From an uncultured virus (IMG/VR IMGVR_UViG_3300017950_001657) (taxonomy: Duplodnaviria; Heunggongvirae; Uroviricota; Caudoviricetes), in IMG/VR virus record IMGVR_UViG_3300017950_001657: a DNA stretch of 20,000 nucleotides. The stretch is one strand, 5' to 3'. The translations under genes and the position numbers were made by a program. The notes under the pieces were generated by a model. It did not search any database, was not told the DNA's origin, and worked only from the letters and a program-made list of their open reading frames with translations. Shown here in pieces: positions 820 to 19,556 of the stretch. The stretch's first letter is position 1. Each line of letters begins with the position of its first letter.

Positions 820-1786
820 ACTATACGAGGAACTATCTCCAAGTTTAGAACGCATGAACGACCTGGTTTTAAAATCAGGTCGTGTCATGTTGGGCGAATT
901 TACTGAAAAATTTGAAAACAGAATAGCAACTGTTGCTGGTGTTGAACATGCCGCAGTAGTAGGCAGTGGCAGTGATGCCTTGTATTATGCTCTAATAGCA
1001 GAAAAGGTAGATGGACCAGTAGCAATGCCTGCGCAAACATTTATTGCTACTAGCAATAGCATCGCAAGAGCAGGATGTCAGCCTGTGTGTATTGACATTA
1101 AACCTAATGGATTGCTTGATTGGAATTTAGTTCCGCAAGAGATTGAAACAGCGGTATGGGTAGGATTGTTTGGAAACACTGAACATATTCCTGATGACTG
1201 TTTTGTAATAGAAGATGGTGCTCAACATTTTGGAGCGCCCTTACAAGCAGACACTGCTGCTTACAGTTTTGATCCCACAAAAGCATTACCCAACTTTGGC
1301 AATGGTGGTGCTGTAGTAAGCTGGGATAAAAAGGTTATTGATAGAGTAAAAGAATTACGTAGACATCATACAGTAGACGGGCATGTTGGTGGCAATAGTA
1401 TTATGAGCGAGCGTGATTGTGCTGAGATGCTAGTTAAATTAGATCATTTCCCGTTCTGGCAAGAGCGTAGACAGGAGATTGCTAGAGATTATCATCAGCA
1501 GTTAGGCAGATACGTAAAGTGTGTAACTGATGCAGATGGACAAGTTAGTAAGTTTGTTATTGAAACATCACGTAGAGCTGACTTACAAGCACATCTAACA
1601 CATCGTAAAATAGAAACAAAACGTGCCTATAGTGAGCCTATTGCTACACTAGACAGAGCAGTGGCAAACTGTCATAAGTTTTTACAGTTGCCTTGCGATC
1701 CATATATGACTGATGAAGAACTGTTAGCTGTTGTAGTGGCTATCAAAGAATTCTTTGAGGAAAGCCCACTCGAAGGTTTGCTGTAG
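794..1786 (+). CDS. DegT/DnrJ/EryC1/StrS-family PLP-dependent (NDP-)sugar aminotransferase
   Basis: Motifs GSGSDAL, PAQTFIATSNSI, IEDGAQHFGA and SFDPTKALPNFGNGGAVV (PLP Lys). Start moved from the track's TTG at 743 to ATG at 794 (MIRLHNL..., typical DegT N-terminus). Confidence 0.93.
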   Translation: MIRLHNLNRLYEELSPSLERMNDLVLKSGRVMLGEFTEKFENRIATVAGVEHAAVVGSGSDALYYALIAEKVDGPVAMPAQTFIATSNSIARAGCQPVCIDIKPNGLLDWNLVPQEIETAVWVGLFGNTEHIPDDCFVIEDGAQHFGAPLQADTAAYSFDPTKALPNFGNGGAVVSWDKKVIDRVKELRRHHTVDGHVGGNSIMSERDCAEMLVKLDHFPFWQERRQEIARDYHQQLGRYVKCVTDADGQVSKFVIETSRRADLQAHLTHRKIETKRAYSEPIATLDRAVANCHKFLQLPCDPYMTDEELLAVVVAIKEFFEESPLEGLL

Positions 1787-2965
1787 ATCATTTCCATCTT
1801 GAACATACTTGACTGCATCTTCAGCACCTCGCACACTCCACTCACCGTTCTCACCATTACCAACTGTACTCCATTGCTCTAGTCTATAACGACTCTCAAT
1901 GTCCGACTGTTGAGTAAGTTTAACACACTCACGAAACGCTGTACGCCAAGTTTCATATGGTGTGGTGTTAAAGTCAGCAGTGCTTCCTACGACAGGTACT
2001 ACACCATGTCTAGCACTTAGCGTAAAATCCAATCCCCATTCTGTAGCATCTAACACCATCTGTTTGTGGTATGCAATAATACCCATGTGCCCATATTCTA
2101 GTCCGTTAACAGGATTACGACTATGAAATATCCAGTGTTTGGGCCCTTGTAGCCAGTCCGGTTGCCACTTAAAATTAAAGTCGGGCTCGACGATACACTT
2201 AGCAAACACGTTAAAGAACCAGGGTGTTTCGCTTATCTCAGCACAGGCTTTGTATGCTTGTGCTCTGCCTGTGACGCCGTCTATGCGCTTGGCTCTAGGG
2301 CACTGTGCCTTTAACAGAAACCAGTTTTTATCGGCGTTTTTTTCACCATTACTAAGATATACAACATCTAGTGGCTTTTCTTCTATATTATAGTCCGTAT
2401 GACGCAATATGTATGGGTAGTCATAGAATTGGTCCTTAAAATGCTGTTTACAGTCCCTAGGCACTAGTAGTACACTGCCGCTCTGTGTAAAGGCGTGTAG
2501 ATCACGTTTTTTCCATAGACTGGGATCATAGTTAATGTCTGCGGGAGTTTGCTTGTGCCATGCATATAGGCTTGTTTGTTCATTCAAACTATCAACTGTA
2601 GGCCACTCATAACGCTGTATATAGGGCTCTGTATGCCAGTTGATATGCTTGTACCACTCTAGTAGTTTAAGGCCCTCTTGTTGACGCTTAAAAGCAGCTA
2701 CAGGCACTAGGAAAGTATCCCCAAACTGCTGGTTACCGCTAGCCCAACAGTGTATCTGATCTGCTTCCCAGGGTGCAGGTTGCCATGTAAAATCAAATGT
2801 TGCATAATTGCAACAGTCTGCTACAATCCACACATACTCTGTACGAGCACGGTTAACACACCTACGTATTGTATCTAGGTGTGTACCGTTCCAACGAGTG
2901 TATTGTGTGTGGGCTGGTAGGTCAACAGTATTACCTGTAATCTGCATGCAAAAGATATCAAACAT
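1724..2965 (-). CDS. Putative glycosyltransferase-like protein (GT-A-like, internally duplicated domain)
   Basis: Second half has DVVYLSNGEKNADKNW...RAKRIDGVTG...AYKACAEISETPWFF...NPVNGLEYGHMG...TPYETWRTAFRECVKL, a GT2-like phage family pattern. The N-terminal half repeats 'TEYVWIV...FDFTWQP' versus 'TPWFFNV...FNFKWQP'. Confidence 0.6.
   Translation of the reverse strand: MFDIFCMQITGNTVDLPAHTQYTRWNGTHLDTIRRCVNRARTEYVWIVADCCNYATFDFTWQPAPWEADQIHCWASGNQQFGDTFLVPVAAFKRQQEGLKLLEWYKHINWHTEPYIQRYEWPTVDSLNEQTSLYAWHKQTPADINYDPSLWKKRDLHAFTQSGSVLLVPRDCKQHFKDQFYDYPYILRHTDYNIEEKPLDVVYLSNGEKNADKNWFLLKAQCPRAKRIDGVTGRAQAYKACAEISETPWFFNVFAKCIVEPDFNFKWQPDWLQGPKHWIFHSRNPVNGLEYGHMGIIAYHKQMVLDATEWGLDFTLSARHGVVPVVGSTADFNTTPYETWRTAFRECVKLTQQSDIESRYRLEQWSTVGNGENGEWSVRGAEDAVKYVQDGNDLQQTFEWAFLKEFFDSHYNS
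1743..1758. repeat. Perfect 16-bp palindrome TCAAAGAATTCTTTGA inside the convergent gene overlap
   Basis: The sequence equals its own reverse complement and encodes KEFF on both strands. Confidence 0.9.
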
Positions 2966-2966
2966 T

Positions 2967-3617
2967 CTATAAAAACTTATTCATAATGAAATCAGCTATA
3001 GCCCTATGTCCTATTCTGTTAGGATGCATTTCACATGGCCTTATAAAATTTTGAACATCACTATTATTATCTTGTAGCCAACATGAAAAATCTCCACAAT
3101 GTGGATATTCTGCAAAGTAATTTTGTGTGTCAAAAACTTCTTTGACTAAACAAGAACGTTTACTAATTAACCATGCGTTATCTGGAATCAGATCGTACAA
3201 GAAACTTTCTGCTAACTGCCCTGCAAATAAATTTACAAAGTAGCACTGTATACCCAAATCCTGGCACCATTTATATAAAATATAAAGAGTTTGGCTTGCA
3301 ACTATGTCATCATTGTAGTCGTTGCCAGTCATTTGTAGTATGCGAAGTTCACTAATTTCTTGGGCAGTGCCTTCTGAATAATCTATGTAGTTATTGTAAT
3401 CTTTGTAAAACATCTGTCTACTTGGATCTGTCAAACAAAAAATTGCTATACTAAAATCTTTTCGTACCTCATTAAAACGTCTAAGTAATCCAGGAATACT
3501 TGTTCCGTTAACACCATAGTTGTTTGATCCTAACAAACAAGGAAAAGACCACTTACTATCTAACTCAGCTCCATATACCCAACTATCTCCAAAAAAAACT
3601 ACACGATTAAAATCCAA
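2967..3617 (-). CDS. SGNH/GDSL-like hydrolase or acyltransferase
   Basis: Block I FFGDSW, block II NYGVNGTS, C-terminal HPNRIGHRAIA. No signal peptide. Confidence 0.8.
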   Translation of the reverse strand: MDFNRVVFFGDSWVYGAELDSKWSFPCLLGSNNYGVNGTSIPGLLRRFNEVRKDFSIAIFCLTDPSRQMFYKDYNNYIDYSEGTAQEISELRILQMTGNDYNDDIVASQTLYILYKWCQDLGIQCYFVNLFAGQLAESFLYDLIPDNAWLISKRSCLVKEVFDTQNYFAEYPHCGDFSCWLQDNNSDVQNFIRPCEMHPNRIGHRAIADFIMNKFL

Positions 3618-4572
3618 GATACTGCTCCCTATTATTAATTAAAAAATTAGTTTCCTGTTCAATCCAATTGAGTGTGTTTAGACTGCGTTGGACATTCTTT
3701 CGATACACATTTCTATTATGATTAAATCTAGATTCGAGTTGAACGATATCATATTCTGTTAACGGTATTTTACTTAACCTCAATACTTCTTGCTGGAATC
3801 TCCACATACGGACATCATGATTAGACTCATTGTCAAAACTTGTATCAACAATGTTATCAAAAACATCAAATCCTAAATTTTTAAGATACTGGTAAGTGCC
3901 CCTGGGTCCATAGATAAGAGGTATGTAGCCCCATAAAAAAGGTTTAATACTTTTTTCTGTTAATCCTATATAATTTTCTGTACAGTAGGTTTCTGCACAT
4001 ACGTCAAACAAAAAGTTATGCACAGGATAGAAGTTTCCTACATTGGGACCTATATCCCTATGTACTTTGTCCTCCAAAAAGTTTTTATACGGTTGTTCTA
4101 TTTCATCTTCTATATAGCCGCGCTGGCTATTATTATTATAACTTGCATATGATAAATCTAATAACTGGTTGTCTTTAAAAAAATAAAATAGTTCTTTTCT
4201 TGGCTTAGTAGGTCGGTTGTTAAGGAAACAAAAAGTTTTCTCAAGGGAGACTTTCCTAAGTTTAGGCAACTCATCAAAAGTATGATCAAAATTTACAGCA
4301 TTCTGAAATTTTAAAAATAATAATTCGGGTCTATAAACATAGTTAAAGTTTGAAAAATGATTGATAAACAGAGAGGGATAATAACAAAAACTGTACAGTC
4401 TGTAATATTTTGTGTAAAGGTTGTTTATTTTTTTGTCAGTAACCTGTTTTACCCATTCAACAATATCTTTATCAAAATTGTCGTCCCAATGGATTAATGT
4501 TACTATACTCGACCGTTCGTTTTTCCAGTAAATATCATGGTAAATTTCAAAATTTGATAATTTAGGAATCAC
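3607..4572 (-). CDS. Putative glycosyltransferase, GT10 (alpha-1,3-fucosyltransferase)-like GT-B family, paralog 1
   Basis: CFLNNRPTKPR...AETYCTENYIGLTEKSIKPFLWGYIPLIYG...LKNLGFDVFD. The E..TEK..P motif recalls the GT10 donor-binding motif. GTG start overlaps the dCMP deaminase stop. Confidence 0.6.
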   Translation of the reverse strand: MIPKLSNFEIYHDIYWKNERSSIVTLIHWDDNFDKDIVEWVKQVTDKKINNLYTKYYRLYSFCYYPSLFINHFSNFNYVYRPELLFLKFQNAVNFDHTFDELPKLRKVSLEKTFCFLNNRPTKPRKELFYFFKDNQLLDLSYASYNNNSQRGYIEDEIEQPYKNFLEDKVHRDIGPNVGNFYPVHNFLFDVCAETYCTENYIGLTEKSIKPFLWGYIPLIYGPRGTYQYLKNLGFDVFDNIVDTSFDNESNHDVRMWRFQQEVLRLSKIPLTEYDIVQLESRFNHNRNVYRKNVQRSLNTLNWIEQETNFLINNREQYLGF

Positions 4573-5011
4573 TTAATTGCTCCACTGGTATGTTACATTC
4601 CTGCAGAAACTTTAGTCCAGCATCCAGTCTATATGGATGCACATAATACACTTCACTAATGCCGCTTTGATATAAAAGTTTAGCACATTCCATACAAGGT
4701 TGATGTGTTATAAAAGCACTGGCACCTTCGCCGCTCTCACTACAGCGAGCAAGTTTCGCGATAGCATTAGACTCTGCATGAAGCACTTCTGGTTTAGTAA
4801 CTAACTCCTTTGTTACCTCAATCTTAGATACTTTAGAAAAGACCTCATCTTCACATTCATTAGTCCAGCCGCTGGGCATCCCATTGTAGCCAATGCTAAT
4901 AACACGATTGTCTTTAACAATCACACAACCAACCTTTAATCTGACAGCAGTACTACATTCAGCATATGCAAACGCTGCTTTCATGTGTGCTACTTTGTGC
5001 TTTTCTTTCAC
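4562..5011 (-). CDS. dCMP deaminase (ComEB / T4 Cd family)
   Basis: VGCVIVKDNRVISIGYNGMPSG, HAESNAI and PCMECAK Zn-binding motifs. Likely start is GTG at 5011 (GTGA overlap with the upstream stop, AGGA just upstream). The track's ATG at 5032 is an alternative. Confidence 0.95.
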   Translation of the reverse strand: MKEKHKVAHMKAAFAYAECSTAVRLKVGCVIVKDNRVISIGYNGMPSGWTNECEDEVFSKVSKIEVTKELVTKPEVLHAESNAIAKLARCSESGEGASAFITHQPCMECAKLLYQSGISEVYYVHPYRLDAGLKFLQECNIPVEQLSDS

Positions 5012-5340
5012 AGTCCTAAATCCATTCTCCATGGATACATCGTATAGCCAAGAGGACGTAAGACGAACTCTTCAAATAGTATAATGACAACAATACCAAA
5101 TACCCATTGCACCCAACGTGGCCATGTTGCTTGCCAGCGTGTAAATGGACGTAATATCCATGCCAATATATTGGTTACCTTGCCCCAGAACCAATCACCT
5201 ACACTAAAGGGAGGAACTTTCCACAGTACTACAGGAACTATTAACCACCATACCCACTGTGGATAATCATCATTAGGATCATCTATTACAATCATTAGAA
5301 CTAGTAGTGCTAGTAGGTATGCACCGATCCATTTTTTCAT
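5008..5340 (-). CDS. Small integral membrane protein, possibly SxtJ-like
   Basis: Hydrophobic segments WIGAYLLALLVLMIVI, WVWWLIVPVVLW and WVFGIVVIILF. Lies directly downstream of the carbamoyltransferase. Start ATG at 5340 (alternative 5355). Confidence 0.7.
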   Translation of the reverse strand: MKKWIGAYLLALLVLMIVIDDPNDDYPQWVWWLIVPVVLWKVPPFSVGDWFWGKVTNILAWILRPFTRWQATWPRWVQWVFGIVVIILFEEFVLRPLGYTMYPWRMDLGL

Positions 5341-5345
5341 ATGTG

Positions 5346-6872
5346 CTAGGAACATACTCTTACTCCATATTTCTTTTCAAAACGATTTGCGTCTGTGCGA
5401 TCATTTACCATTGGCTCTCCACGAATATTAAGACTAGTGTTTAGTAGCATAGGACAGTCCGTTAACACATACCATTTCTCTAATAAATCTCTAGCACCCG
5501 TCTTATCATCCTTGCCCACGGTTTGCACACGGCTCGTACCGTCATGATGTACAATGGCAGGAAAACGTTCAGGGTGCTTGCACTTATAGGTATGTTGCAT
5601 ATATGGACTTTTATCCCCGTCCATTTTAAAATAATCTTGTGCATGTTCCTCGAGTATCATAGGCGCAAAAGGTCTAAACTTTTGTCTACGTTTGATTTCG
5701 TTTACGCGGTCCTTGATATCTGCACCACGTGGATCAGCAAGTAGACTACGATTACCTAGGGCACGTGGACCAAACTCTGCACGACCACTTGCAACTCCTA
5801 CAATACCTTCACGCTGTAGCTCACCAATAATCTCTTCACTTGGATATTCTCCAGGAATGTTTGTGCCTAAATACGGCCCTTGCCAGTTTAACTGTTTACC
5901 ATATGCTAGCGCGGCTGCGCCTAGACTTGAACCACAGTCTCCTGGATTAGGCATAATCCACATATCATTCCATATATCTCTGATGTGACTGTTTGCCACA
6001 CAATTAAGAGCAACTCCACCCATGAACACACAATTTTGTAAGTGTAAACCCCAACGTGTGCCTGCAAGTTGTCGCATAAAAGTTCCTAAAAAACGTTCTG
6101 TGGTTAACTGAGTTGCACGAGCAAGAGTCTCTTTGCCGTATTCAGCACCAAACTCGTATTCTATGCCTGTATGAAAGTTTCGTTTAAATTTTTGTTTGTG
6201 ATCCTGATCAATAGCCATTTCCCATACGTCACGATATGCATCTTTTTTACCGTATGCAGCCATACCCATTAGAATGTATTCTTCTTCCATAGGCTTCAAG
6301 CCTACACGATGTGTCATAGCACTATAAAATAAACCTAGACTATGAGGATAAAGCTGACGATATAATCTTTGATATTGTGCATGACCATCGTCGTCATACC
6401 AAGCTCGCCATGCTGTAATAGTATCCCATTCTCCTATGGCATCGATGACGACAACCATTGCTTCTTCAAATGGGCTAGTTTGAAATCCTGCTGCTGCATG
6501 ACTCAAGTGATGGCTGTATGTACGAATTCTTCTAGTAGGTCGACTGTCCATGCTAACAGATGTTGGCATAACATCATTGAGGTAAGGACTTAGATGTGCC
6601 CTAGGACTTTTATCGTTCAAAGCCTTTCGCCATTCACCGCTATAAATTTGACGTGTCTTTTTTAGCCAAGGACGTTCATACCATGCAATTACATCAGGCA
6701 TCCCGTATCCTAGTGCCTCTTGCATAATGCCATCATTAAGTTCAGCATCATTTTTAATTTTGCTATAGCGTTCGCTATGACCAGCAAATAATATATTGCC
6801 GTTACCGTCTACAACACTCACACCAGCATCATGAAAGCCGGCGCTCACACCCATGTATGTTTTAATTTTCAT
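5346..6872 (-). CDS. O-carbamoyltransferase, NodU/CmcH/TobZ family
   Basis: FHDAG, ERYSKIK, HHLSHAAAG, DAIGE, SLGLFYS, EYILMGMAAYG, GGVALNCVAN, PGDCGSSLGAA (Kae1-like domain), then EFGPRALGNRSLLADP, FRPFAP, HHDGTSRVQTV and LLNTSLNIRGEP (YrdC-like domain). Confidence 0.97.
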   Translation of the reverse strand: MKIKTYMGVSAGFHDAGVSVVDGNGNILFAGHSERYSKIKNDAELNDGIMQEALGYGMPDVIAWYERPWLKKTRQIYSGEWRKALNDKSPRAHLSPYLNDVMPTSVSMDSRPTRRIRTYSHHLSHAAAGFQTSPFEEAMVVVIDAIGEWDTITAWRAWYDDDGHAQYQRLYRQLYPHSLGLFYSAMTHRVGLKPMEEEYILMGMAAYGKKDAYRDVWEMAIDQDHKQKFKRNFHTGIEYEFGAEYGKETLARATQLTTERFLGTFMRQLAGTRWGLHLQNCVFMGGVALNCVANSHIRDIWNDMWIMPNPGDCGSSLGAAALAYGKQLNWQGPYLGTNIPGEYPSEEIIGELQREGIVGVASGRAEFGPRALGNRSLLADPRGADIKDRVNEIKRRQKFRPFAPMILEEHAQDYFKMDGDKSPYMQHTYKCKHPERFPAIVHHDGTSRVQTVGKDDKTGARDLLEKWYVLTDCPMLLNTSLNIRGEPMVNDRTDANRFEKKYGVRVCS

Positions 6873-6970
6873 TTGTAAATAAAAGGATCTCTTTTACGTA
6901 GTTCTTTTAGTCGCTTGCGATACTGTATCTCAAGTTTAATTCTATTAATAAGGTTGCGAATCCATTTCAT
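6869..6970 (-). CDS. 33-aa basic peptide MKWIRNLINRIKLEIQYRKRLKELRKRDPFIYK (not in ORF track)
   Basis: Fills the 6873-6969 gap exactly. ATG at 6970-6968 overlaps the upstream TAA (TAATG) and TGA at 6871-6869 overlaps the carbamoyltransferase ATG (ATGA), so it is coupled at both ends. Confidence 0.85.
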   Translation of the reverse strand: MKWIRNLINRIKLEIQYRKRLKELRKRDPFIYK

Positions 6971-8040
6971 TATAATAATCCTAGTGCTTGCATCTGCACA
7001 TTTTCATAGTCTTCATCGTCTACAGTATAATTAAAGTAGTAGGGAACACCATCTACTTCAATAATATGTATGTTTAAGAGAGGGCTCATCATATCCCAAA
7101 TCTGTTCAGGATCGGTTGTTCCAAAACTACTTAGTACATCTACTTGCCCTAGTGGCAAATAACCTAAACTAAGCATGGGATCATTTATGTCTTTACTGTT
7201 TTCTGTAAGCCAAGAGTAATACTTGTCCATAGTACTATCATGCCAGGGTTGATCACCACCACGTACTACATCACGACCCCATTCAATATCAAACTCTCCG
7301 CTATAATATTTTAAATCTGTAATTGCTTCGCATACAGCATTGGTAAGTTTAGGCGCACCTTCATCACGGAAAACTTCGAAGTATGTTTTACCGATCTGAC
7401 ACCAGTGCATATAAACACCACCAAATACACGATCATATCCGTTAGTTATAAATCCATCGCGATATTCGTCTTGTAAATGTAAGCGTGGAGCATTTAAAAA
7501 TGTAGTGATCTGGCTAGGACGAGTCCAGTAGGGATTACGCTCATGCTTTACACGACTAAGAATATACGATTCCATTTCGTGGCACAGATTATTCAATTGT
7601 CTGATACTATACTTTACATATGGGTTAGCTTCATGATAGTACTGGCTCATGTTGCCAACCGTGCCTTGTAATATTTCAAAATGATTGTGTAGCATATTAA
7701 ACGTGTCGTGTTTAATATACTCAGGATCTTTATCAAACTTATATTTGTCTGGATGGTACCAAACAGTATCCAGAGTATACTCTTCATCAATATTATATTT
7801 TAGAGGGCTCCTATTAATACGAGTAATATGCCGATTAAGGTCAGATAGCATTGCTTCCAGACCACGTGTCTGTTTTGGAAACCCCATAAAGCAAAAGTTC
7901 TTTTCCAAGTGTAGCCCACGCTCGAGAATATCTACTAGAGCAGACTTCCATGCACGAGCCAAGGGAATATCGTGGGGAGTTATTGTGTAGTCTAACTCAC
8001 CGCCACCTTTGTAAGGGCTTTTAAGAACTACTCGTATCAA
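6970..8040 (-). CDS. Hypothetical protein, 356 aa, with His/Glu helical motifs
   Basis: Long open frame with TTG start overlapping the upstream radical SAM gene end. Motifs NMLHNHFE, LNNLCHEMES and YMHWCQIGKT. No family recognised. Confidence 0.8.
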   Translation of the reverse strand: MIRVVLKSPYKGGGELDYTITPHDIPLARAWKSALVDILERGLHLEKNFCFMGFPKQTRGLEAMLSDLNRHITRINRSPLKYNIDEEYTLDTVWYHPDKYKFDKDPEYIKHDTFNMLHNHFEILQGTVGNMSQYYHEANPYVKYSIRQLNNLCHEMESYILSRVKHERNPYWTRPSQITTFLNAPRLHLQDEYRDGFITNGYDRVFGGVYMHWCQIGKTYFEVFRDEGAPKLTNAVCEAITDLKYYSGEFDIEWGRDVVRGGDQPWHDSTMDKYYSWLTENSKDINDPMLSLGYLPLGQVDVLSSFGTTDPEQIWDMMSPLLNIHIIEVDGVPYYFNYTVDDEDYENVQMQALGLL

Positions 8041-9319
8041 TGCTTGCCCACCATTGCTTTAGTTTACCATACACCCAAGGATCATTACCAATTCTTAAGG
8101 TATCTATAAACTTTAAACCACTCCTACGACTGTCGTATAGGTCCATTCGTTTTTTGGCTTTTCGTCTAGCCTCTTGATATGTGTCGGGATACTCTTCAGC
8201 AAACGTAGGCCGATTGAGTAAGTTTACCAACACATCATGCATTGCCCCATTGGTTAGAGGAAGTACACGATTTATTATAGCATGAAGCTCTTGCTTGGGC
8301 AAGAATAAAGGAGACATTGCAATATCTGGCGTAAACGCAAAACACACCTTTACTAATAGATCCACATTTAACTCATTGGCTAGCTCTTGTATTTTTAGAA
8401 TTTGGCCTAGTCCAGGCGTAGTTAGTGTAAAGTCCAGTCGCATTTGTCTACGATGCTTGCTATGTTCTAAACCTTGCTTGAAGTTTTCTATAAACTTGTT
8501 ATAGTTTAATCCAGTACGTATGTACTCTCCAACCTCACCAACACCGTCAAGGCTAGCACAGATTTGCCAGTCTCTTACCTTCGCAAGTATGTCAGTATAA
8601 AGGTTGCAACCACCTAACTCAATACGGCTAAGGTTGGTATTGTACCTAGCGTATATACGTGGACCATCTCCAAGTTCTATAATGCGTTGCATATACCGCC
8701 AGTGCTGTTCATACATAAGTGGCTCTCCGCCCACCCAGTATATTTCCTCAACGCGATGTTCCTCGACTGCACTAGCAAACTCCTGTTCTACAGTATCTTT
8801 TTGAAACTGGTCAATGGCTTGCTTTACAGATGTTTCCATCCAAGGTTCTATTTTACCATCCATACGTGCTTCTGCTTCCCAACTGCTACTCAGCATTGGA
8901 CCGCACATACGACACTTAAAGTTGCATAGGTTAGTAAAACGATAGTCCCAACTAACAGGCTGCATACTAGTATAGCCTGTGTCATCCGTTGTTCGTGCTA
9001 TGTCATCATACTTGTGTTTGAATAAATGCCAAAAGTAATCACGGTAAACATCTGTGTTAAGTAACTTCTTGTCACATACTTCACACTCAGGTGGTAGTTC
9101 GTTTGCTAGCATTTGACGTCGTACTCTGCGAATATGTTCGCCATTCCACCATTCTTCTAGTGTTTGTGGCACATATTCATTTGTGCCATCAGCAGTGTCT
9201 ATATACTGACGGAAGTTTTGTGCAGGTTCTCTGCTAGCACAACATAACCTACGCTCTGTCTGTGGACTTAGATAGGTATGCGTCCAGGGAGCCATACATA
9301 GGTTATCTGGTTTATCCAT
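8021..9319 (-). CDS. Radical SAM protein with N-terminal Twitch/SPASM-like domain (subtype A)
   Basis: CMAPW...RLCC...CEVC, then NLCNFKCRMC (CxxxCxxC), GGEPLM and YNTN. Confidence 0.93.
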   Translation of the reverse strand: MDKPDNLCMAPWTHTYLSPQTERRLCCASREPAQNFRQYIDTADGTNEYVPQTLEEWWNGEHIRRVRRQMLANELPPECEVCDKKLLNTDVYRDYFWHLFKHKYDDIARTTDDTGYTSMQPVSWDYRFTNLCNFKCRMCGPMLSSSWEAEARMDGKIEPWMETSVKQAIDQFQKDTVEQEFASAVEEHRVEEIYWVGGEPLMYEQHWRYMQRIIELGDGPRIYARYNTNLSRIELGGCNLYTDILAKVRDWQICASLDGVGEVGEYIRTGLNYNKFIENFKQGLEHSKHRRQMRLDFTLTTPGLGQILKIQELANELNVDLLVKVCFAFTPDIAMSPLFLPKQELHAIINRVLPLTNGAMHDVLVNLLNRPTFAEEYPDTYQEARRKAKKRMDLYDSRRSGLKFIDTLRIGNDPWVYGKLKQWWASIDTSSS

Positions 9320-10295
9320 TTATAAACTCTAGTATTTTTTCTTTAGTTTGCATGTTGCGTTTGTTAATCACATCAAAAAACTTATTGTAAAAATAGTCAT
9401 AATTATAATCAACTTGATCCTGTTGGTCGAGATCAAAACTAAAGTTGCTTATTAAGTTTTTGACATAATCAACTCTTTCGAAATCCCATTCTTCGTCCCA
9501 ATTAATACCAAAATAATCTTCAAACGTTTCAAATCCTAATCCACGTAACCGTGCGTAGCCTAATCTTTGTCCAGTCATTACAAACATACTCTTTGATACT
9601 ATTGGTTTAATAATTTTTTCTGTCAAATAACCATGCAATCTGTTATCATGACTATTGCATAAACTTTCATTTGTCCAAATTAATTTGCAATCATTACAAA
9701 TTACATTGTCAGTTGACCATTGATCTCCGGCGATACTGCGTTTTGGTATATTATATTTTGACTGATACGTCGGGTTAACCGGGTTTTCCAACCACGTATA
9801 CTGTGTATCAGGATAATTATCCAACAGATGTTTGAGTATTTCCTCTTTATGCCAATCAGCTCTACGATTTAGACAACCAAATGTATATTGCCTTTGGTTT
9901 AAATTCTTTCTTGGTATTTTTGCAAACCATTTAAAATTAGGATGTGTATACCAGTGTAAATGTTCCATATGAAAATATGTTACATCTAAGGTGTTCACAG
10001 TGTCACCTAAATGTTGACTTGTTATTATAATTTTTCTGCCGGTATACTTCTTTATGGTGTCTACCAAGTCAATATTCTCACATTCGCCTAAATTTGTTAT
10101 AATATAGGTATCGTAACCTTTGGGGGGCGGCTTTTGACTCCAATCTCCTGTCATTACAAGATACGTATTGGTTTTATCTGTGACGTGTTTTAAAAATTCT
10201 AGATCTGTGCCACACTCTTGATAATATTTTCCAAATTCATAATTGTCTAGTGTACCATTATACAAGGTAAAGCCTAATATTTCCCATTCATTCAT
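9312..10295 (-). CDS. Putative GT10-like glycosyltransferase, paralog 2
   Basis: FGCLNRRADWHK...NESL...YLTEKIIKPI...LRGLGFETFED. Confidence 0.6.
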   Translation of the reverse strand: MNEWEILGFTLYNGTLDNYEFGKYYQECGTDLEFLKHVTDKTNTYLVMTGDWSQKPPPKGYDTYIITNLGECENIDLVDTIKKYTGRKIIITSQHLGDTVNTLDVTYFHMEHLHWYTHPNFKWFAKIPRKNLNQRQYTFGCLNRRADWHKEEILKHLLDNYPDTQYTWLENPVNPTYQSKYNIPKRSIAGDQWSTDNVICNDCKLIWTNESLCNSHDNRLHGYLTEKIIKPIVSKSMFVMTGQRLGYARLRGLGFETFEDYFGINWDEEWDFERVDYVKNLISNFSFDLDQQDQVDYNYDYFYNKFFDVINKRNMQTKEKILEFING

Positions 10296-11430
10296 AACCT
10301 ATTAATCTCGCAACTTCTGGATGTGTATCTGCAAAACTTACGCCTCTAAACTTATCTGTCTCACGTATTTTTGCAAATATCTTCTCTGGATCAATTACAG
10401 GCTGAGAAAGTGTAATTGCTTTAATACTACGGATCTGATCTGCATAGTCACTGTGCATAACTATTGCCTTGTCTAGTCTATGCATAAACTCTGCATGTGC
10501 ATCGCGAGGTAGATTGAGTAAACTATACTCCTCAGGATCATGCATTAGATTAAAGTGTATGTCATCTATTCCACTCTGCTTTGCCCAGTTAAGTATCTCA
10601 GTCATGTAATAAGTGTTCTGTAGATTCCAAGTAATACACAACTGCAAACTAAATGGATAGCCTTGTTCCTTCATTTCAATGAAACGTTTGATATTACGAT
10701 TTACTGTACGCCACTTTGCGCCATCACGTTCATACTCAAAACGTTTGCCGGTATTGTCTATGCTAAATGCAATCTGTACATGTTTAAAGTGCCGCCATAC
10801 TTCATGCTGTTTGGGGAACTGTGTGCCATTTGTGTTATAGTGGATGTCAATCTCGCCTGCATGCCCCTGATCCACTGCACGTTGTAGTAAATCAAAATGC
10901 TGTTTAATAAGGAAAGGTTCACCTCCAGTAAATTCAAAGTACTTTAGATTTGGTAGTAGGCTATCCAAATTGTCCCAAAAACCTTGACTGCGTCTTGGCC
11001 ATTGGCCCTCTCGTAACCACTGCTTGGCAATATGCTTGTCCCCAAACTGTGCAATTTGTTCTTGTGCCCATTTACTGCTACTCCAACTGCCGCATATGCG
11101 ACATTTAAGATTACAGATGTTGCCTAGTTTAAGATCAAGGAATATTAGGTCAGGTTCAAAAGGTACGTGCTTAAACTTTTCCAACATGTATTCACGCTTG
11201 GACTTTTTTCCAGCCGTTTCTTCAATCCAACAGCGTTCACACTGTTCAGGCTGTTTACCTTGTTCAAAAGTTTCTCGCAACTCTTGCATTGCACTGCTGT
11301 TAAATGCTTCTTCTAAAGTATGTGTACGCAAGTTTAATCCAGGTAGTTCACCTTTGTACAAACAACAGGGACGAACACCGCCTAGTGGTGTTGTTTCCAA
11401 ACTAATCCATGGCAGTATACATTTATGCAT
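10288..11430 (-). CDS. Radical SAM protein with N-terminal Twitch/SPASM-like domain (subtype A)
   Basis: CILPW...RPCC...CERCW, then NICNLKCRIC, TGGEPF and YNTNGT. Start moved to ATG at 11430 (MHKCILPW), which overlaps the upstream stop at 11423-11425. Confidence 0.93.
   Translation of the reverse strand: MHKCILPWISLETTPLGGVRPCCLYKGELPGLNLRTHTLEEAFNSSAMQELRETFEQGKQPEQCERCWIEETAGKKSKREYMLEKFKHVPFEPDLIFLDLKLGNICNLKCRICGSWSSSKWAQEQIAQFGDKHIAKQWLREGQWPRRSQGFWDNLDSLLPNLKYFEFTGGEPFLIKQHFDLLQRAVDQGHAGEIDIHYNTNGTQFPKQHEVWRHFKHVQIAFSIDNTGKRFEYERDGAKWRTVNRNIKRFIEMKEQGYPFSLQLCITWNLQNTYYMTEILNWAKQSGIDDIHFNLMHDPEEYSLLNLPRDAHAEFMHRLDKAIVMHSDYADQIRSIKAITLSQPVIDPEKIFAKIRETDKFRGVSFADTHPEVARLIGYE
11404..11421. 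repeat. 18-bp exact direct repeat AATCCATGGCAGTATACA, copy 1 (copy 2 at 12596-12613)
   Basis: Identical 18-mer encoding CILPWI at the N-termini of two adjacent radical SAM paralogs. Confidence 0.85.
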
Positions 11431-12736
11431 AGTCTTGTAATCTTTCGAGTTCAGGGAATACGCTGAAGAAACTTTCATTGCGCCAACGATCAAGTTCCTT
11501 AGCCCGCATAACAAACTCATGAATGAGCTTGCTGTTATCAGTTGTTTGCATATACTTTACTGCACTCTTAAACCCATTTGTAGCTCTTGTTAAATGATCC
11601 TGCGGTTCAAGCCATGCAATATGTTCATTGTATATATCTACTAGTTCAGTCTTCATGTCATTGGGTAGTACATCCAAACGGAAACGCACAGGATCTTGTA
11701 ATATATTAACATTCCAATCACTGGGTTTGACTAGTCCTAGCTCTACCCATTCTCTATGAAAGTTAACAATATTATAACTGTTCATCAGGCTTAGTGTTGA
11801 ACTTACATAAAAATCTACAGTAGGACACTTCTCTAGCATACGTTCTCTGTTTGCTACAATCTTACTCCACTCTGTACCTTTACGCATGAGCTCACCACGT
11901 GCATAGTTTGCATCCAAACTTGCCCCAATGCTTACAATGTCAAACTCATTCCACATGTCCAGCACATCCTGCTGTTTGAATACTAGCTCTGTAAAGTTTG
12001 TATTGTAGTTTAGTCTAACATCTGTGCGGCCTCTGCGTAATAGTTCACGAAGCAATTTGTAATGCTCTGCCATCATTAGTGGTTCACCACCTGCAAAGTA
12101 AATGTTTTCTATGCTGTCTATGTGTGGTTCTAACTGTTCCCACATGTCCATTTCGTAGCGTCCTGCGTACTGCACGTTGGGATGATCCTGTGGTAACCAA
12201 CTCATCTTCTTTGCTTCTTTTACCCAGTTGCTGCTAAAAATATCACCGCATGTACGACAAGCTAGGTTACATAAATTACTAAAGCGTATGTCATAGTACT
12301 TGAGTTCAAAACGATCTAGTGTTCCGTCATCTAGTGTTTCATCTACAACCGCAATGTGATGACCTTCATTTTTGTTTTGACTGTAGCGCATGCTAACAAA
12401 GCCTGCTGCTTCCTGTTCATAACATTTGGTACACTGTTTGCAAGGTTTATCTGCTAACATGTTACGACGCATTTCACGTAATGGTTCGTCGTTCCATACT
12501 TCAGCCATAGTCTGTTCACGCAGGTTACCAACTGGATGTTCCATTAGTCCCAAGCAACAAGGATAGGCACGGCCATCTGGAAACGCATGCAAGTGAATCC
12601 ATGGCAGTATACAAAATGATTCACTGGTTAACAGTCTGTCACGCTGCACGTCTGTAAGATCTTCTACATCAATGTACACAGGTTTACGTGTATGATAATC
12701 GTAGTTTTTATAATAATTTTCTAATTTGTCTGTCAT
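11423..12736 (-). CDS. Radical SAM protein with N-terminal Twitch/SPASM-like domain (subtype A)
   Basis: CILPWIH...DGRAYPCC...VGNLREQTMAEVWN...CTKCY, then NLCNLACRTC, AGGEPL and YNTN. Confidence 0.94.
   Translation of the reverse strand: MTDKLENYYKNYDYHTRKPVYIDVEDLTDVQRDRLLTSESFCILPWIHLHAFPDGRAYPCCLGLMEHPVGNLREQTMAEVWNDEPLREMRRNMLADKPCKQCTKCYEQEAAGFVSMRYSQNKNEGHHIAVVDETLDDGTLDRFELKYYDIRFSNLCNLACRTCGDIFSSNWVKEAKKMSWLPQDHPNVQYAGRYEMDMWEQLEPHIDSIENIYFAGGEPLMMAEHYKLLRELLRRGRTDVRLNYNTNFTELVFKQQDVLDMWNEFDIVSIGASLDANYARGELMRKGTEWSKIVANRERMLEKCPTVDFYVSSTLSLMNSYNIVNFHREWVELGLVKPSDWNVNILQDPVRFRLDVLPNDMKTELVDIYNEHIAWLEPQDHLTRATNGFKSAVKYMQTTDNSKLIHEFVMRAKELDRWRNESFFSVFPELERLQDYA
12596..12613. repeat. 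18-bp exact direct repeat AATCCATGGCAGTATACA, copy 2
   Basis: Identical to 11404-11421. Confidence 0.85.
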
Positions 12737-14079
12737 AGACTGTTATACCATTCAGCTAATTCTGGGAAAGTCTCAGTAAAGTTTTTATTCCTGCGCACAT
12801 CATACTGCCTATAAAACTTTTTAAAGTCGTTGTGTAGTTTAGGCATTTCAAACGCTTCACTATGCGGCGTTTCTACTGTACGCAAATATGTTACCAGTCG
12901 TTCCAACTGTCCTTGTTCAAACTGATGCATTGGCGTGCTGCGGTTAAGGTACTTGGGTGCCCAACGTTTGTATAAGTCTTCTAGTCTATCAGCGTGACGA
13001 TTACGAATATCATTAGGAAGTACTAAGGGCGACTGAAAACTTGGAAAGCGTAATATATTTAAACTGAATACTGCAAAGTTATTTCCTAACAGTTTTCTTG
13101 CTTGTAATATTTGATCGATTAGATCCGGTAGTGTTTCTAAACACAATGCGTTAATGGTCATCATACAATGTGTACCGATGCCTGCCTCACTTAATTTACA
13201 AATATTTTCCCACCAGTATTCAAAGTCCAAACCATCACGAATATATTCTGCTCTTGCACTAGTGCTTTCACAACTTGTATAAACATCCAAACTAGGCAAA
13301 TAACTACGTGCGCTTATTAGTCTATCAATGAATTCCTGCTTACCGCCTAAGTTACTATTAATAGCAAGTTTGGTTTGACTTTTGTCTACGTTAGCTTTGA
13401 ACCAATCTATCAAACGCCACAAGTCTGCACTCATTGTTGGCTCACCGCCGGTTACTCGTAGTTCACGTAGTGTACTGTGGAGATCAGTTTCCCACCATTT
13501 AAAAAATGCTTCTACGTAAGGATTTCTATCCTCCACCCCATAAAGCTGGCTACTACTATGAACGTGAGTAAAGTGGTTGCGGCCATCACTAACAAGGCCT
13601 TGATAACTACCATTTGTTTTTAAGTCCTTTACCCATGTGCTACTAAAAGCAGGATTACAATAACTGCAAGCAAAATTGCAGGTACGATCAAAGGCAATTT
13701 CGAGTGTTCGGAGATTGACGTCACTATCATGCGGGCTATTTCGCGCATCTTGTAATTCCTCATCAGTATATATCTTACTTTTGTATACACGGTCACTTAT
13801 AAAGTTAGAACCCATGTCCTCTATTTTCCAACAGTATTCACAACCCTGTGGTCGTTCCCCACACTGCATTTGTCGTCTTTGTTCTTTTTTCTCCGGTGTA
13901 TTATGTAACAGTTTTGGGTTTGCTTCTACCTCAACAGGATCTACTTTATGTGGCAATGGATGATGGCAACTGGTGGTCATGCCACTACCTAACCATATGG
14001 TGGCATTGTACCACTTAGCACCGCAGAAGGTCGGACTAAGTTTATCGAGGACCTGCTGCTTGTAGGTTAGATCATCCAT
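12733..14079 (-). CDS. Radical SAM protein with N-terminal Twitch-like domain (subtype B)
   Basis: FCGAKW...GMTTSCHHP...CEYCWKIE...SDRVYKS, then RTCNFACSYC and TGGEPTM. Confidence 0.93.
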   Translation of the reverse strand: MDDLTYKQQVLDKLSPTFCGAKWYNATIWLGSGMTTSCHHPLPHKVDPVEVEANPKLLHNTPEKKEQRRQMQCGERPQGCEYCWKIEDMGSNFISDRVYKSKIYTDEELQDARNSPHDSDVNLRTLEIAFDRTCNFACSYCNPAFSSTWVKDLKTNGSYQGLVSDGRNHFTHVHSSSQLYGVEDRNPYVEAFFKWWETDLHSTLRELRVTGGEPTMSADLWRLIDWFKANVDKSQTKLAINSNLGGKQEFIDRLISARSYLPSLDVYTSCESTSARAEYIRDGLDFEYWWENICKLSEAGIGTHCMMTINALCLETLPDLIDQILQARKLLGNNFAVFSLNILRFPSFQSPLVLPNDIRNRHADRLEDLYKRWAPKYLNRSTPMHQFEQGQLERLVTYLRTVETPHSEAFEMPKLHNDFKKFYRQYDVRRNKNFTETFPELAEWYNSL

Positions 14080-15101
14080 TCAAAGATATGTTCCATTTTG
14101 TATTCTTGTTCACTACTGAACTCATAAAAACGTTCTTTATTATAACGTAGATCGTCTAGCATGTCACTATACATACTAGTCAAATCCTGTGTTTGTAAAT
14201 GCTCTAACACTTGCCACACAGTATCGTGAGGGCCTTGTGTTTCAGCTGGTATATGATCCCAGTAATGATTGAATGTTTTAAACCCATGATTACGCATCCA
14301 TGCATAGGTTTTAGGATTTCCGTGTACAATGTATGGACGTAATCCTATTGTAGCTTTCCACATTTTCTCCGTAACTAACAACGGTTGCCATTCGTCAAAA
14401 ACAGTTTCACTGATAATGTTCAAGAAATGATTCTGCCATAAATCTAGTCTGCCTAATGTTACTAGATCATTCGGAATACCTGCAAAATCATCATGACTGC
14501 CGTTGTGCAGATAGTTTTCTGGATAGTCTTCGATAGTTATTGGTTCCCAGTGTTGTATGCCACCTTGCCAGTCAATTCCCTCTTGTGGTCCACCTAGTGT
14601 CACTATACCATGTTTGAGTAAATCTCTTAGTCTAAGTATTTCAGTTATCTCAACTCTATGTAATCTAGGTTTGCGTTGATATAGCATGTACATGTATATA
14701 GGTTGTTGCATAACTACTTGATCTTCAGTGTACTTTGGCATTAAGTCTTTGCCAATTAGTCCATGGAAGTTCCATTCATAGGGACTGTTTTCAAACATGC
14801 CTATACGGTAAATGTTTTTGATATTATATTTCTTTACAATACTATCTAGATCTTCGCTGGTAAGATATACCGGATCAATTACACTTAGTAAAAACAAGTT
14901 ATCAAAATCGTGCGTAAAGCTCATTGCACGTTTATATTCGTTGTTTTCAAACTGACTACCAAACCAAGTTGTATTAATAACGAGATTACGATCGTTAGGA
15001 AAAGCACTAGCTACTTGTTGTACTGTGCTGTCAAAAATGTGTTTTTCTTCAGGGCCATATTGCCAACTAATTGGAAAATGAGTGCCTACACGTTCTAGCA
15101 T
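14067..15101 (-). CDS. Putative GT10-like glycosyltransferase, paralog 3
   Basis: LYQRKPRLHR...NIISETVF...LVTEKMWKATIGLRPYIVHG...GFKTFNHYW. Confidence 0.6.
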   Translation of the reverse strand: MLERVGTHFPISWQYGPEEKHIFDSTVQQVASAFPNDRNLVINTTWFGSQFENNEYKRAMSFTHDFDNLFLLSVIDPVYLTSEDLDSIVKKYNIKNIYRIGMFENSPYEWNFHGLIGKDLMPKYTEDQVVMQQPIYMYMLYQRKPRLHRVEITEILRLRDLLKHGIVTLGGPQEGIDWQGGIQHWEPITIEDYPENYLHNGSHDDFAGIPNDLVTLGRLDLWQNHFLNIISETVFDEWQPLLVTEKMWKATIGLRPYIVHGNPKTYAWMRNHGFKTFNHYWDHIPAETQGPHDTVWQVLEHLQTQDLTSMYSDMLDDLRYNKERFYEFSSEQEYKMEHIFEWMI

Positions 15102-15925
15102 TAGATCATATTCCTAACACCGTCTCTGAAACTGGTTGGGCATTCTAGACCCAAGCTCTTCATACGAGTAGTATCTGCATATCTATGACCTGCACCTTCT
15201 GGCTCATCAGTGTCTCGCTCTACAGGCACACGCTCTCCCCATATAAGTTCATAGATAGTTTCCGCGACTTCAATAAAGTCAATTGGAATACCTGTTCCAA
15301 TATTGACTGTTATACTATCATCTCTTTGGATTAGCGTGTTCCAAATAGCCAGTGCATCGTCAATATAAACCCAGTCACGTGTTTGTGTCCCGCTACCCCA
15401 TACACTACACTGCTTACGTTTGGCACGTTCGATAATAGCAGGTAGCGGATAGTCCATGCTCTGTCCAGGTCCATATATACTAAAAGGTCTAACAACCATA
15501 CTAGGTATTTTGCAAAACTCTAGCATACGTTCTGCCATAAGTTTTTCCATACCGTATAAGTCAAACGTATCACTACTGCCAAATGTATCCTCTTGCATAG
15601 GAGTACCAGTTTTATGCTGTAGGTCCACGGGATATGCTGCACAACTACTTGGGTAAAGTATTTTACCACAATGCTGTTCTGCCCAACTAAAGGCAATCCT
15701 ATCTAGTTCAGCGTTCTCTGCAATACGCCAATAGTTATTATCGATACCTTTGCGTCCTCCTACGTAGGCTGCAAAATGTATGAGCACATCAAAGTTTTCA
15801 TTGGGCATACCCTTGCGTATGTCTTCTTGAATGTCCATGCCTGTAACAGCATGACCTTGATCTGCAAAATATTTTTGTGCGTGGCTACCTAAAAAGCCTC
15901 TGTTACCTGTAATTAATATTTTCAT
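15101..15925 (-). CDS. NAD-dependent NDP-sugar epimerase/dehydratase (extended SDR)
   Basis: ILITGNRGFLG (Rossmann), HFAAYVGG, SSCAAY, YGMEK (YxxxK), RPFSIYGPG and VWGSGTQTRDWVYIDD. AAxVGG plus SSC recall GDP-sugar epimerases and reductases. Confidence 0.93.
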   Translation of the reverse strand: MKILITGNRGFLGSHAQKYFADQGHAVTGMDIQEDIRKGMPNENFDVLIHFAAYVGGRKGIDNNYWRIAENAELDRIAFSWAEQHCGKILYPSSCAAYPVDLQHKTGTPMQEDTFGSSDTFDLYGMEKLMAERMLEFCKIPSMVVRPFSIYGPGQSMDYPLPAIIERAKRKQCSVWGSGTQTRDWVYIDDALAIWNTLIQRDDSITVNIGTGIPIDFIEVAETIYELIWGERVPVERDTDEPEGAGHRYADTTRMKSLGLECPTSFRDGVRNMI

Positions 15926-16763
15926 ATACGTACTCTGCCCATTGTTTGTGATAGTCTGCTAACGGATGTTGATTACGGAATATATTAGTATCTGAGTAAT
16001 GCTGTTCTCTGTATTCAACACTGTCTATTAGCTGTAACATCCATTGCTTAAAGTCTACTAGTTGTTTACCGCTAACAAACTCTTCGATAGTCAGCAGTCT
16101 TTCAACTGCTGTCATATCTGTATAGACACATTTGTCGTCAGTAATTCCTATTGTTTTGTACCAAGCGTCAAAACTTGAAGTGAAACCTAAACTATCTATC
16201 ATATTAGTAGTAAGGTATAGATTAACGTGAGGAAACTGTAAACTGTTGCGTATTTGTTTTATAGCCGTTGTATTTAACAATTCCAAAAGACTGTAATAAT
16301 CATTAGGTGTGTTTATATTTTGTTTGAACCACTCTACGTAGTCAAAGTCATGATCAATATCTGTGTTAAACATTCTACCAGCACCTGTAAACACACAGAC
16401 TACTAGGATCTTTTCATAGTTTAACAATGGCACAATATTGGCAAACTCAGTTATCCTGTTAGCCATCCATTGATTTCCTTGAGCACACAATGCGAGATTT
16501 AACCAGTCCGAGCCCATCATACCTGAGAGTTGGTTTCCCCAAACGGATTTTAATCTATAGTCATCGTCAGAGTTGTTCTCGCTTATATCGCTACCCCAAG
16601 TCCAACTATCTCCGACAGTAACTAGTAGAATGTTGCTTGATCTGCTTACAAAGTCAAAAGTGTTTGTAGGAGTTAGATACCAGCTATTAGTGCTATCAGC
16701 GATAGTAAAATACCTAGGAAGTACTTCTTTAGCTAAAACTATTGGCAATGTATTTGCACTCAT
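15903..16763 (-). CDS. SGNH/GDSL-like hydrolase or acyltransferase, second copy
   Basis: VTVGDSWTWGSD, NLALCAQGN and C-terminal HPLADYHKQWA. Exact start uncertain. Confidence 0.75.
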   Translation of the reverse strand: MSANTLPIVLAKEVLPRYFTIADSTNSWYLTPTNTFDFVSRSSNILLVTVGDSWTWGSDISENNSDDDYRLKSVWGNQLSGMMGSDWLNLALCAQGNQWMANRITEFANIVPLLNYEKILVVCVFTGAGRMFNTDIDHDFDYVEWFKQNINTPNDYYSLLELLNTTAIKQIRNSLQFPHVNLYLTTNMIDSLGFTSSFDAWYKTIGITDDKCVYTDMTAVERLLTIEEFVSGKQLVDFKQWMLQLIDSVEYREQHYSDTNIFRNQHPLADYHKQWAEYVYENINYR

Positions 16764-19027: not shown

Positions 19028-19556
19028 GCAAAAACCCACTAATTTGCATGGTGTATTTGTCTTGCATGCCTGCATTAGCACCAAGATGTATTACACTGCT
19101 ATCCCATAGTAATGCATCACCTTGTTTCCAATGTGTAAAGTTTTTAAATTCCTTACCGTCTTCGCTATACTGTATAAAATGTCCCAGACAGTAATCTTCC
19201 ATATGTATATTGGCACGTACTTTAAGTTCTGTTCTTTCAGGAAATTTTTTATTGATCTGATAAAATGTATCTCTATGTAGTGGTATAACACAACCTGGGG
19301 GTTGTTTAATGGCGCTGACAGTAACAACTTCGATACCTATCTGATTGCCAATTTCATCGAAATCAATATCATCCTTAGTATACCATAACTGATGTATGCG
19401 AGTATTAAGGTATTCGTAAGCAGTAGGTGCACCATATTTTTTATGAAGATCTGTTAGTTCATGTACCTGATGACTAATACAACTACCTTCATGTAATGTA
19501 AAGTCTGCTTGTAAAAACTTGTCGTAATCTATATTTAATTTAAGTTTCTTAAACAT
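19017..19556 (-). CDS. 2OG-Fe(II) oxygenase / cupin-fold protein
   Basis: QPPGCVIPLHRD (HxD), WKQGDALLWD, and IHLGANAGMQDKYTMQISG (distal His followed by the final strand), typical of DSBH oxygenases. Confidence 0.78.
   Translation of the reverse strand: MFKKLKLNIDYDKFLQADFTLHEGSCISHQVHELTDLHKKYGAPTAYEYLNTRIHQLWYTKDDIDFDEIGNQIGIEVVTVSAIKQPPGCVIPLHRDTFYQINKKFPERTELKVRANIHMEDYCLGHFIQYSEDGKEFKNFTHWKQGDALLWDSSVIHLGANAGMQDKYTMQISGFLRED

Follow-up and report, generated by a model that had tools for sequence, protein, structure and literature searches.

The 20,000-nucleotide stretch of DNA analysed here (the window), from the uncultured virus of IMG/VR record IMGVR_UViG_3300017950_001657 (Caudoviricetes), encodes a 33-aa microprotein whose gene is coupled to that of a NodU/TobZ-type carbamoyltransferase (CT). 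The peptide gene was conserved in viruses and bacteria, its C-terminal tail kept a tyrosine near a free C-terminus, and the same tail was found at the ends of larger proteins, some of them SGNH-like. By analogy with C-terminal carrier tails of other systems, the peptide may receive or carry a carbamoyl group.

Coupling of the microprotein to the carbamoyltransferase

The microprotein gene was located at positions 6869..6970 on the minus strand, stop codon included, and the open reading frame (ORF) list and its translation gave an ATG start and the product MKWIRNLINRIKLEIQYRKRLKELRKRDPFIYK. The ATG had one base in common with the TAA of a 356-aa ORF (TAATG), the TGA was overlapped by the ATG of the CT (ATGA), and AGGA was read from the sequence 8 nt 5' of the start codon. 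The preliminary description of this DNA, made from the letters alone, had noted the ORF with its two overlaps, and this observation was exact in every detail. It had also called the peptide basic and free of a transmembrane helix, with which the composition agreed (12 K/R versus 3 D/E, and no hydrophobic run). Modeling by AlphaFold2 with the family alignment predicted a helix over residues 2-27 that is broken at D28/P29 and followed by a short turn (29-32), with a mean predicted local distance difference test (pLDDT) score of 90.8; the ORF probably encodes a soluble, basic, helical microprotein. The tail codons, D28-P29-F30-I31-Y32-K33, occupied 6872..6889 (minus strand), and Y32 (6875-6877) is the proposed reactive residue. 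The peptide had no family match in Pfam, NCBIfam, or PHROG, and a sequence search of the PDB with the peptide profile returned chance helices only (E 0.28 and 2). The window was part of a viral record of 105 kb, with a CheckV completeness of 29%, and it held a single tail of this type. Metatranscriptome contigs from four libraries (salt marsh, seawater) mapped to parts of 5300-8100, and one 216-nt contig, a relative at about 94%, covered 6850-7065 including the whole peptide ORF; such contigs may be DNA carry-over and show neither strand nor translation, and they were not counted as evidence.

The CT gene (5346..6872, minus strand) encoded a class III protein of 508 aa that matched the Pfam domains Carbam_trans_N (2.4e-33) and Carbam_trans_C (3.9e-52) and PHROG 1601, Nol-like carbamoyltransferase (1.5e-89), with 7xb6, GdmN, NovN, and TobZ as its relatives in the PDB. 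In class III CTases, carbamoyl-AMP is made in a YrdC-like domain and the carbamoyl transfer takes place in a Kae1-like domain, and the direct substrates of NodU/TobZ-type enzymes are taken to be small molecules.

Conservation of the peptide

To collect CT loci, we used an alignment of 27 CTs, which retrieved 80 viral loci; with four close, near-identical loci from a scan with a single CT, the set came to 84. A same-strand ORF ending in ...[KR]L[KE]ELRKRDPFIY[K/R/D] was present in 76 of them. One locus (L058) carried a DPFTY variant in place of DPFIY, four without the peptide had no upstream flank (L004, L059, L063, and L081), and in three the peptide was not found in the upstream flank that was present (L007, L014, and L074). 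The window peptide itself ended in [KR]L[KE]ELRKRDPFIY[KRD], on the CT strand and immediately 5' of a CT that belonged with the others in one clade. Among the 76 viral peptides, 47 abutted or overlapped the CT start, most of them by ATGA, and the remaining 29 lay 160-2041 nt upstream of the CT on the same strand. The pair was unchanged even in L003, where the homologue of the 356-aa ORF was divergent and had another C-terminal end. When the CTs were placed in a tree (162 rows), a clade with support 95 held 90 of the 91 peptide-bearing rows, the window CT among them, and none of the 18 rows with DUF5989, which belonged to a separate clade of 29 rows. With nearly all peptide rows in one CT clade, the tree suggested that peptide and CT co-evolve.

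A CT-profile scan of bacterial genomes revealed two classes of CT-linked peptide. CTs with 48-60% identity to the window CT carried the same soluble peptide in bacterial metagenome-assembled genomes (MAGs) labelled Legionellales, Haliscomenobacter, Polynucleobacter, and Rickettsiales, and variant soluble peptides were found in an alphaproteobacterial MAG, Nonomuraea, Geodermatophilus, and Terrimicrobiaceae. At 29-34% identity, the CTs were accompanied by membrane peptides ending in ...APFIYxLF, mostly just downstream of the CT. No peptide was found upstream of the Streptomyces-type CTs (45% identity), and the class-B label of the peptide at L107 was discarded as an alternative-frame artefact. 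The system is not encoded by phages only, since bacteria carry the peptide too.

The coding sequence had a median dN (nonsynonymous divergence) of 0.18, a median dS (synonymous divergence) of 1.53, and a median dN/dS of 0.12 (403 pairs of 43 unique 33-codon genes). Within the last 12 codons, the non-consensus fraction was 0.017 at codon position 2 versus 0.273 at position 3, and all four proline codons and all six arginine codons occurred in the tail. A search with a profile of 68 members returned 546 clusters at E<=1e-3 among 1.84 billion representatives, and a blastn search of 5000-8100 against phage records gave a single weak match of 177 nt. The D, P, and Y of the tail were invariant in the 68 aligned peptides. 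The preliminary description had asked whether the peptide with its DPFIY recurs upstream of homologous CTs, and it did so at most of the viral loci. Among the matches listed, 148 of 149 representatives retained the tyrosine and none had phenylalanine in its place, whereas D, P, F, and I each occasionally varied; this pattern suggested that the tyrosine hydroxyl matters. In the same 149, the residue after the tyrosine was K in 105, D in 6, and absent in 12, and the tyrosine was the last or penultimate residue in most. Judged from these sequences, the peptide is a real, conserved gene, and its conservation is far beyond chance. That the ORF is short and is annotated by no family library might suit an untranslated ORF arising by chance in an intergenic overlap, but its recurrence at the viral loci, the low dN/dS with saturated synonymous sites, and the 546 clusters refute this explanation as far as sequence evidence goes, and its probability is next to nil.

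Comparison with DUF5989/SxtK

The preliminary description had placed the peptide beside SxtK and the DUF5989 family (Pfam PF19451), and the two do have features in common: each is a small ORF by a NodU/TobZ-type CT (such as SxtI), to which the window peptide is joined by the ATGA overlap, and each has P-F-I-Y at the C-terminus. However, DUF5989 proteins have a membrane helix, end in PFIYxLF, lie mostly downstream of the CT, and accompany another CT clade, and the window peptide differed in each of these respects. With the DUF5989 hidden Markov model (HMM; membership cut-off, 27 bits), there was no match for the peptide at E<=1, for the 68 family members at E<=0.1, or for the whole 105-kb record at E<=10. 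In a control, all 17 class-A (membrane) peptides matched PF19451, with the consensus ...APFIYxLF, so that the earlier statement that DUF5989 peptides beside CTs end in PFIYxxF was borne out. The class-A consensus also contained a membrane stretch (...KKWWLxPIxxVLLL...), whereas the window peptide has not a single hydrophobic helix, and its PFIY is followed by K and the stop codon, with no xxF. Alignment of the peptide profile with DUF5989 by hhalign matched DPFIY with aPFIY only (5 columns; probability 15%). On the missing HMM match, the five-column alignment, and the separate CT clade, we conclude from sequence comparison that the peptide is not a member of DUF5989/SxtK, although it has the motif and the CT partner in common with that family.

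At the 18 DUF5989 loci, SxtJ was found in 5, MBOAT in 4, and GDSL/SGNH in 5. In L110 (Pseudaeromonas sp. ZJS20, 2968-7508), the gene order was CT-MBOAT-GDSL-DUF5989, and DUF5989, CT, and MBOAT also shared an operon in L129, L140, and L143. The set of L110 resembles a Dlt set with the CT in place of DltA/DltC, and the PFIYxLF end of DUF5989 fits the FXYXXF acyl-shuttle motif; no description of such a Dlt-like set of CT, MBOAT, and DUF5989 was found in the literature searched. Passages of an earlier report call SxtJ and SxtK "unknown" and have them act "in conjunction" with SxtI (PMC2679770).

Portability of the C-terminal tail

When the profile was compared with proteins of 127-2000 aa, 131 matches were obtained at E<=10. 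In 110 of the 120 longer matches listed, ...LEELRKRDPFIY[RK] formed the extreme C-terminus of a larger protein, and in the other 10 the peptide lay at the front or inside, with some reading through into a CT. The most frequent carriers were aldolase-like proteins of 343-369 aa (about 70 clusters; Pfam PF08013/PF01116). The tail was also carried by SGNH-like proteins, an N-twitch radical SAM protein (P0138), cupin-like proteins of 247-253 aa, relatives of the glycosyltransferase-like paralogues of the window (428-501 aa; P0185, 501 aa), SnoaL-like proteins, and one UDP-glucose-dehydrogenase-like protein. The cupin-like (P0136) and glycosyltransferase-like (P0185) fusions had no relatives in viral contigs, and the radical SAM fusion had relatives there at 24-25% only.

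Viral loci with aldolase and tail numbered 11, of which 7 had the fused form and 4 were split into the enzyme and a short tail ORF, the two forms alternating between closely related loci. The CT followed the tail in all 11; it abutted the tail stop in 10, and in L167 a single gene lay between the two. Within 3 kb, these loci had no radical SAM gene. What preceded the tail ranged from a basic helix through an acidic stretch to an entire enzyme, and it seems to depend simply on which gene lies 5' of the peptide. Across the forms, the constant features appear to be the last 12-15 residues, the free C-terminal position, and the CT gene behind. The tail is thus portable on the evidence of these alignments, and presumably only the tail is needed, in a variable N-terminal context. 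Tentatively, and with somewhat more doubt than confidence, we regard the C-terminal tail ...ELRKRDPFIYK as the working part of the peptide and as a dedicated partner of the CT translated directly after it.

Association with SGNH-like proteins

For counts of neighbouring genes, same-strand ORFs were clustered over 85 loci, the window included. A family of SGNH-like proteins of about 225 aa, which passed the Pfam cut-off of DUF6071 and had weak GDSL matches and a GDS block, was present in 41 of them; 24 copies were situated between peptide and CT, and further copies overlapped the peptide start. In L089 (Geodermatophilus amargosae DSM 46136) and L092 (a Terrimicrobiaceae MAG), the SGNH-like protein was joined in frame, by way of a long linker, to ...RRDPFIY*, with the CT directly after, and in L093 the SGNH-like protein and the tail were adjacent as separate genes. 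In the window, the candidate downstream partner is a 216-aa SGNH-like protein of the DUF6071 type (2967..3617, minus strand), which hhalign aligned over 189 columns with a profile of 24 SGNH-like proteins that flank the peptide (probability 97.1, E 6e-11). The alignment took in the GDS block and the C-terminal HPxxxGH, as in a full-length member. A second SGNH-like paralogue of 286 aa (15903..16763, minus strand) was matched at the N-terminal GDS block only (probability 96.7, E 3e-10, 75 columns) and had a weak match to Pfam Lipase_GDSL (E 0.13).

The preliminary description had proposed a relay from the CT through the peptide tyrosine to SGNH proteins. The link to SGNH-like proteins held, both in gene neighbourhood, where they often flank the peptide directly, and in the two fusions. 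Transfer to SGNH proteins cannot account for everything, since the tail is also found on aldolase-like, radical SAM, cupin-like, glycosyltransferase-like, and SnoaL-like enzymes.

Other genes of the island

The 356-aa ORF whose stop overlaps the peptide start (6970..8040, minus strand) belongs to no named family and is a frequent upstream neighbour, with homologues in 48 of the 85 loci. It had no match in Pfam, NCBIfam, or PHROG. Its AlphaFold2 model (pLDDT 89.9; predicted template modeling score, 0.87) found nothing in the PDB at E<=0.001 with Foldseek; in a VIA-wide comparison, the best Z was 8.5, and many cyclophilins had Z 7-7.6 over 130-148 residues, a weak likeness to their barrel (Z 7-8), into which residues 55-168 put a helical insert. 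That a fold known for binding proline (cyclophilin) neighbours a peptide whose proline is invariant is a lead only. The 356-aa ORF was also considered as a counterpart of the partners fused in bacteria or in the aldolase type and was rejected, there being no BLASTP likeness to L089, L092, L093, or P0146.

Five paralogous radical SAM enzymes with a twitch/SPASM domain in front were encoded on the minus strand at 8021-9319, 10288-11520, 11423-12736, 12733-14079, and 16729-18099, and all passed NCBIfam NF033640 (N_Twi_rSAM) at 292-383 bits versus a cut-off of 170; P0138, which bears the tail, is a relative from elsewhere. Also on the minus strand were four unnamed glycosyltransferase-like paralogues of 321-344 aa (3607-4572, 9312-10295, 14067-15101, and 18092-19084), all with a C-terminal GF(D/E/K)xF(D/E/N) motif; the three that were scanned (3607-4572, 9312-10295, and 14067-15101) had no family match. 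The same motif was present in P0185, which ends in the tail. The single-strand island of the peptide further included a DegT-type aminotransferase, an epimerase/dehydratase, and a dCMP deaminase. Downstream of the CT, a 413-aa ORF starting with MFDIF... (1724-2965, minus strand) had no family match; homologues were present in 38 of the 85 loci, for the most part downstream of the CT, and the aldolase-tail loci had them too (MLDVFFLSYNEPYAD...). A Trp-rich, membrane-like ORF of 115 aa (5008-5355, minus strand), which overlaps the CT stop and had no family match either, belonged to no larger cluster of neighbours in the 85 loci and is therefore not a conserved part of the module. In relatives, genes for APS-kinase-like and cytidylyltransferase-like proteins recurred beside the CT, either downstream or upstream (L006, L008, L013, L016, L017, L023, L024, L030, L049, and L085), which hints that the product is also sulfated.

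Proposed mechanism and alternatives

We propose that the CT would bind the tail and carbamoylate its near-terminal tyrosine, and that the resulting O-carbamoyl-tyrosine, an activated aryl carbamate, would be carried to another active site. The receiving site would most plausibly be in the SGNH-like (DUF6071-type) proteins of the island, from which the carbamoyl group would pass to a sugar-like product built by the island. The proposal draws on two analogies, with HypE on the enzyme side and with DltX and PatA on the tyrosine side. The loading of the penultimate tyrosine by the CT is, in our estimate, possible and somewhat short of probable, and the hand-off of the carbamoyl group to SGNH-like proteins is less likely than the loading.

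As described in two reports, HypF makes carbamoyl-AMP and carbamoylates the C-terminal cysteine of the PRIC tail of HypE (PMC9633730, PMC12130793). The window pair would resemble this in joining an enzyme of the carbamoyl-AMP-forming type, here with both Carbam_trans domains, to a putative nucleophile at or next to the C-terminus of a tail, which in HypE is flexible and swings to another active site. It differs in the nucleophile, which would be tyrosine here and is cysteine there, in HypE being an ATP-dependent enzyme of more than 300 aa, and in the carbamoyltransferase, since HypF is a four-domain class II CTase and the window CT is a class III enzyme like TobZ and GdmN. In DltX and PatA, the tyrosine of an FXYXXF motif is the acyl shuttle to an SGNH enzyme, according to passages of PMC12148441, in agreement with the earlier statement that the DltX tyrosine carries the acyl group. 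The likeness to DltX (with the MBOAT protein DltB and the SGNH protein DltD) and to the PatA tail lies in the invariant tyrosine in F-x-Y near the C-terminus (F30-I31-Y32 in the window peptide), in the occurrence of free and fused forms, and in the SGNH link. Unlike DltX, the peptide is soluble, has no membrane helix, and ends in FIYK; the donor would be an ATP-dependent carbamoyltransferase instead of a carrier protein or acyl-CoA, and the group carried would be a carbamoyl group. MBOAT was not matched among the window ORFs scanned, 12 with Pfam and 12 with NCBIfam (21 ORFs together, which is not every ORF of the window).

Put together, the parts would make up a cytoplasmic, MBOAT-free carbamoyl-tyrosine carrier system, in which a TobZ-type CT would load the penultimate tyrosine of a free or fused tail, the aryl carbamate would be the true donor for SGNH-like transferases, and the membrane-bound DUF5989/SxtK proteins would be its envelope-facing version. 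As a whole, this picture is doubtful. Several observations weigh against the proposed loading and hand-off. There was no SGNH-like gene within 2.5-3 kb in 44 of the 85 loci, and none of the aldolase-like, radical SAM, cupin-like, glycosyltransferase-like, SnoaL-like, and UDP-glucose-dehydrogenase-like proteins fused to the tail is an obvious user of carbamoyl groups. The motif is FIYK, not FXYXXF, and the PFIY common to the peptide and DUF5989 could be convergent, because homology to DUF5989 did not extend beyond five columns. Carbamoyl-serine intermediates of enzymes usually turn over slowly. The fusion of the tail to many partners would fit a docking tag too, or may reflect the gene that lies 5' of the peptide.

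The main rival is such a docking or activating tail, that is, a non-covalent subunit that binds the CT or a shared hub as a short linear motif and activates the CT or tethers it to the enzyme bearing the tail, with intermediates being channelled and the tyrosine hydroxyl making a key hydrogen bond or metal contact without ever being carbamoylated. The presence of the tail on at least six unrelated enzyme families, irrespective of the N-terminal context, speaks for it, as do the ATGA coupling, which favours 1:1 co-assembly with the CT, and the basic ELRKR helix before the tail, which is conserved like a binding helix. However, the retention of tyrosine in all but one of the 149 representatives listed, never replaced by phenylalanine while its neighbours vary, would be odd for a purely hydrophobic docking residue; the need for a tyrosine within 0-1 residues of a free C-terminus would be unexplained, and a free 33-aa tag would compete with the fused tags. 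We rate this explanation as rather unlikely. The preliminary description had itself offered an alternative, that the peptide is a substrate of the adjacent radical SAM enzymes, of the kind found among peptides made by the ribosome and modified after translation (RiPPs). Passages of PMC10070186 provide a precedent in crocagin, with the C-terminal Ile-Tyr-Trp core of CgnA, the esterase-fold protease CgnD, and the carbamoyltransferase CgnI, and the window resembles it in combining a small peptide with an Ile-Tyr-containing C-terminal end, an SGNH/esterase-fold protein, and a CT. By this account the peptide would be a precursor or scaffold, crocagin-like or cofactor-like, whose FIYK undergoes modification, by the CT and the radical SAM enzymes among others, before an SGNH-fold peptidase cuts it off, as CgnD does with CgnA; the five N-twitch radical SAM enzymes of the window and the N-twitch radical SAM proteins in 48 of the 85 loci would suit it. 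In crocagin, however, the core is consumed and released, and that pathway needs CgnB/CgnE and the dioxygenase CgnC, whereas here the tail is often fused to whole enzymes. Stable and widespread fusions, such as the aldolase-like clusters, would spend one enzyme molecule per product, and a precursor joined 1:1 to an entire enzyme is poorly suited to being consumed. Together with the lack of radical SAM genes around the aldolase tails, this weakened the RiPP alternative. In addition, the bacterial contexts have only the CT and the tail in common, and no 2-oxoglutarate-dependent oxygenase was present among the 21 window ORFs scanned. The precursor account is thus improbable.

Glycogenin is a precedent for a glycan primed on tyrosine, and the tyrosine hydroxyl of the tail might similarly be the attachment point for the island sugar, with the CT acting on the tethered sugar. 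The invariant tyrosine and the wealth of sugar-nucleotide enzymes in the island (the DegT-type aminotransferase, the epimerase/dehydratase, and the glycosyltransferase-like paralogues, whose relative P0185 has the tail) are compatible with such a primer. It would leave unexplained why the peptide is strictly adjacent to a CT and not to a glycosyltransferase, and bacterial loci such as L093 and L102 had no glycosyltransferase next to the pair, so that we consider a primer very improbable.

Implications

No description of the peptide family was found in the literature searched, which took in neither articles behind subscription nor the supplementary files on Dlt. If the proposal is true, a protein tail that is loaded or needed by NodU/TobZ-type CTs would be a step that nobody had looked for, and, on the carrier reading, the long-unexplained SxtJ/SxtK companions of carbamoyltransferases would be accounted for. 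Besides acylation at membranes, the idea of an acyl-tyrosine shuttle, as in DltX, PatA, and OatA, would then cover carbamoylation that is soluble and driven by ATP. Both DUF5989/SxtK and this phage and bacterial microprotein family, with its 546 or more unnamed clusters, would gain a role that can be tested.

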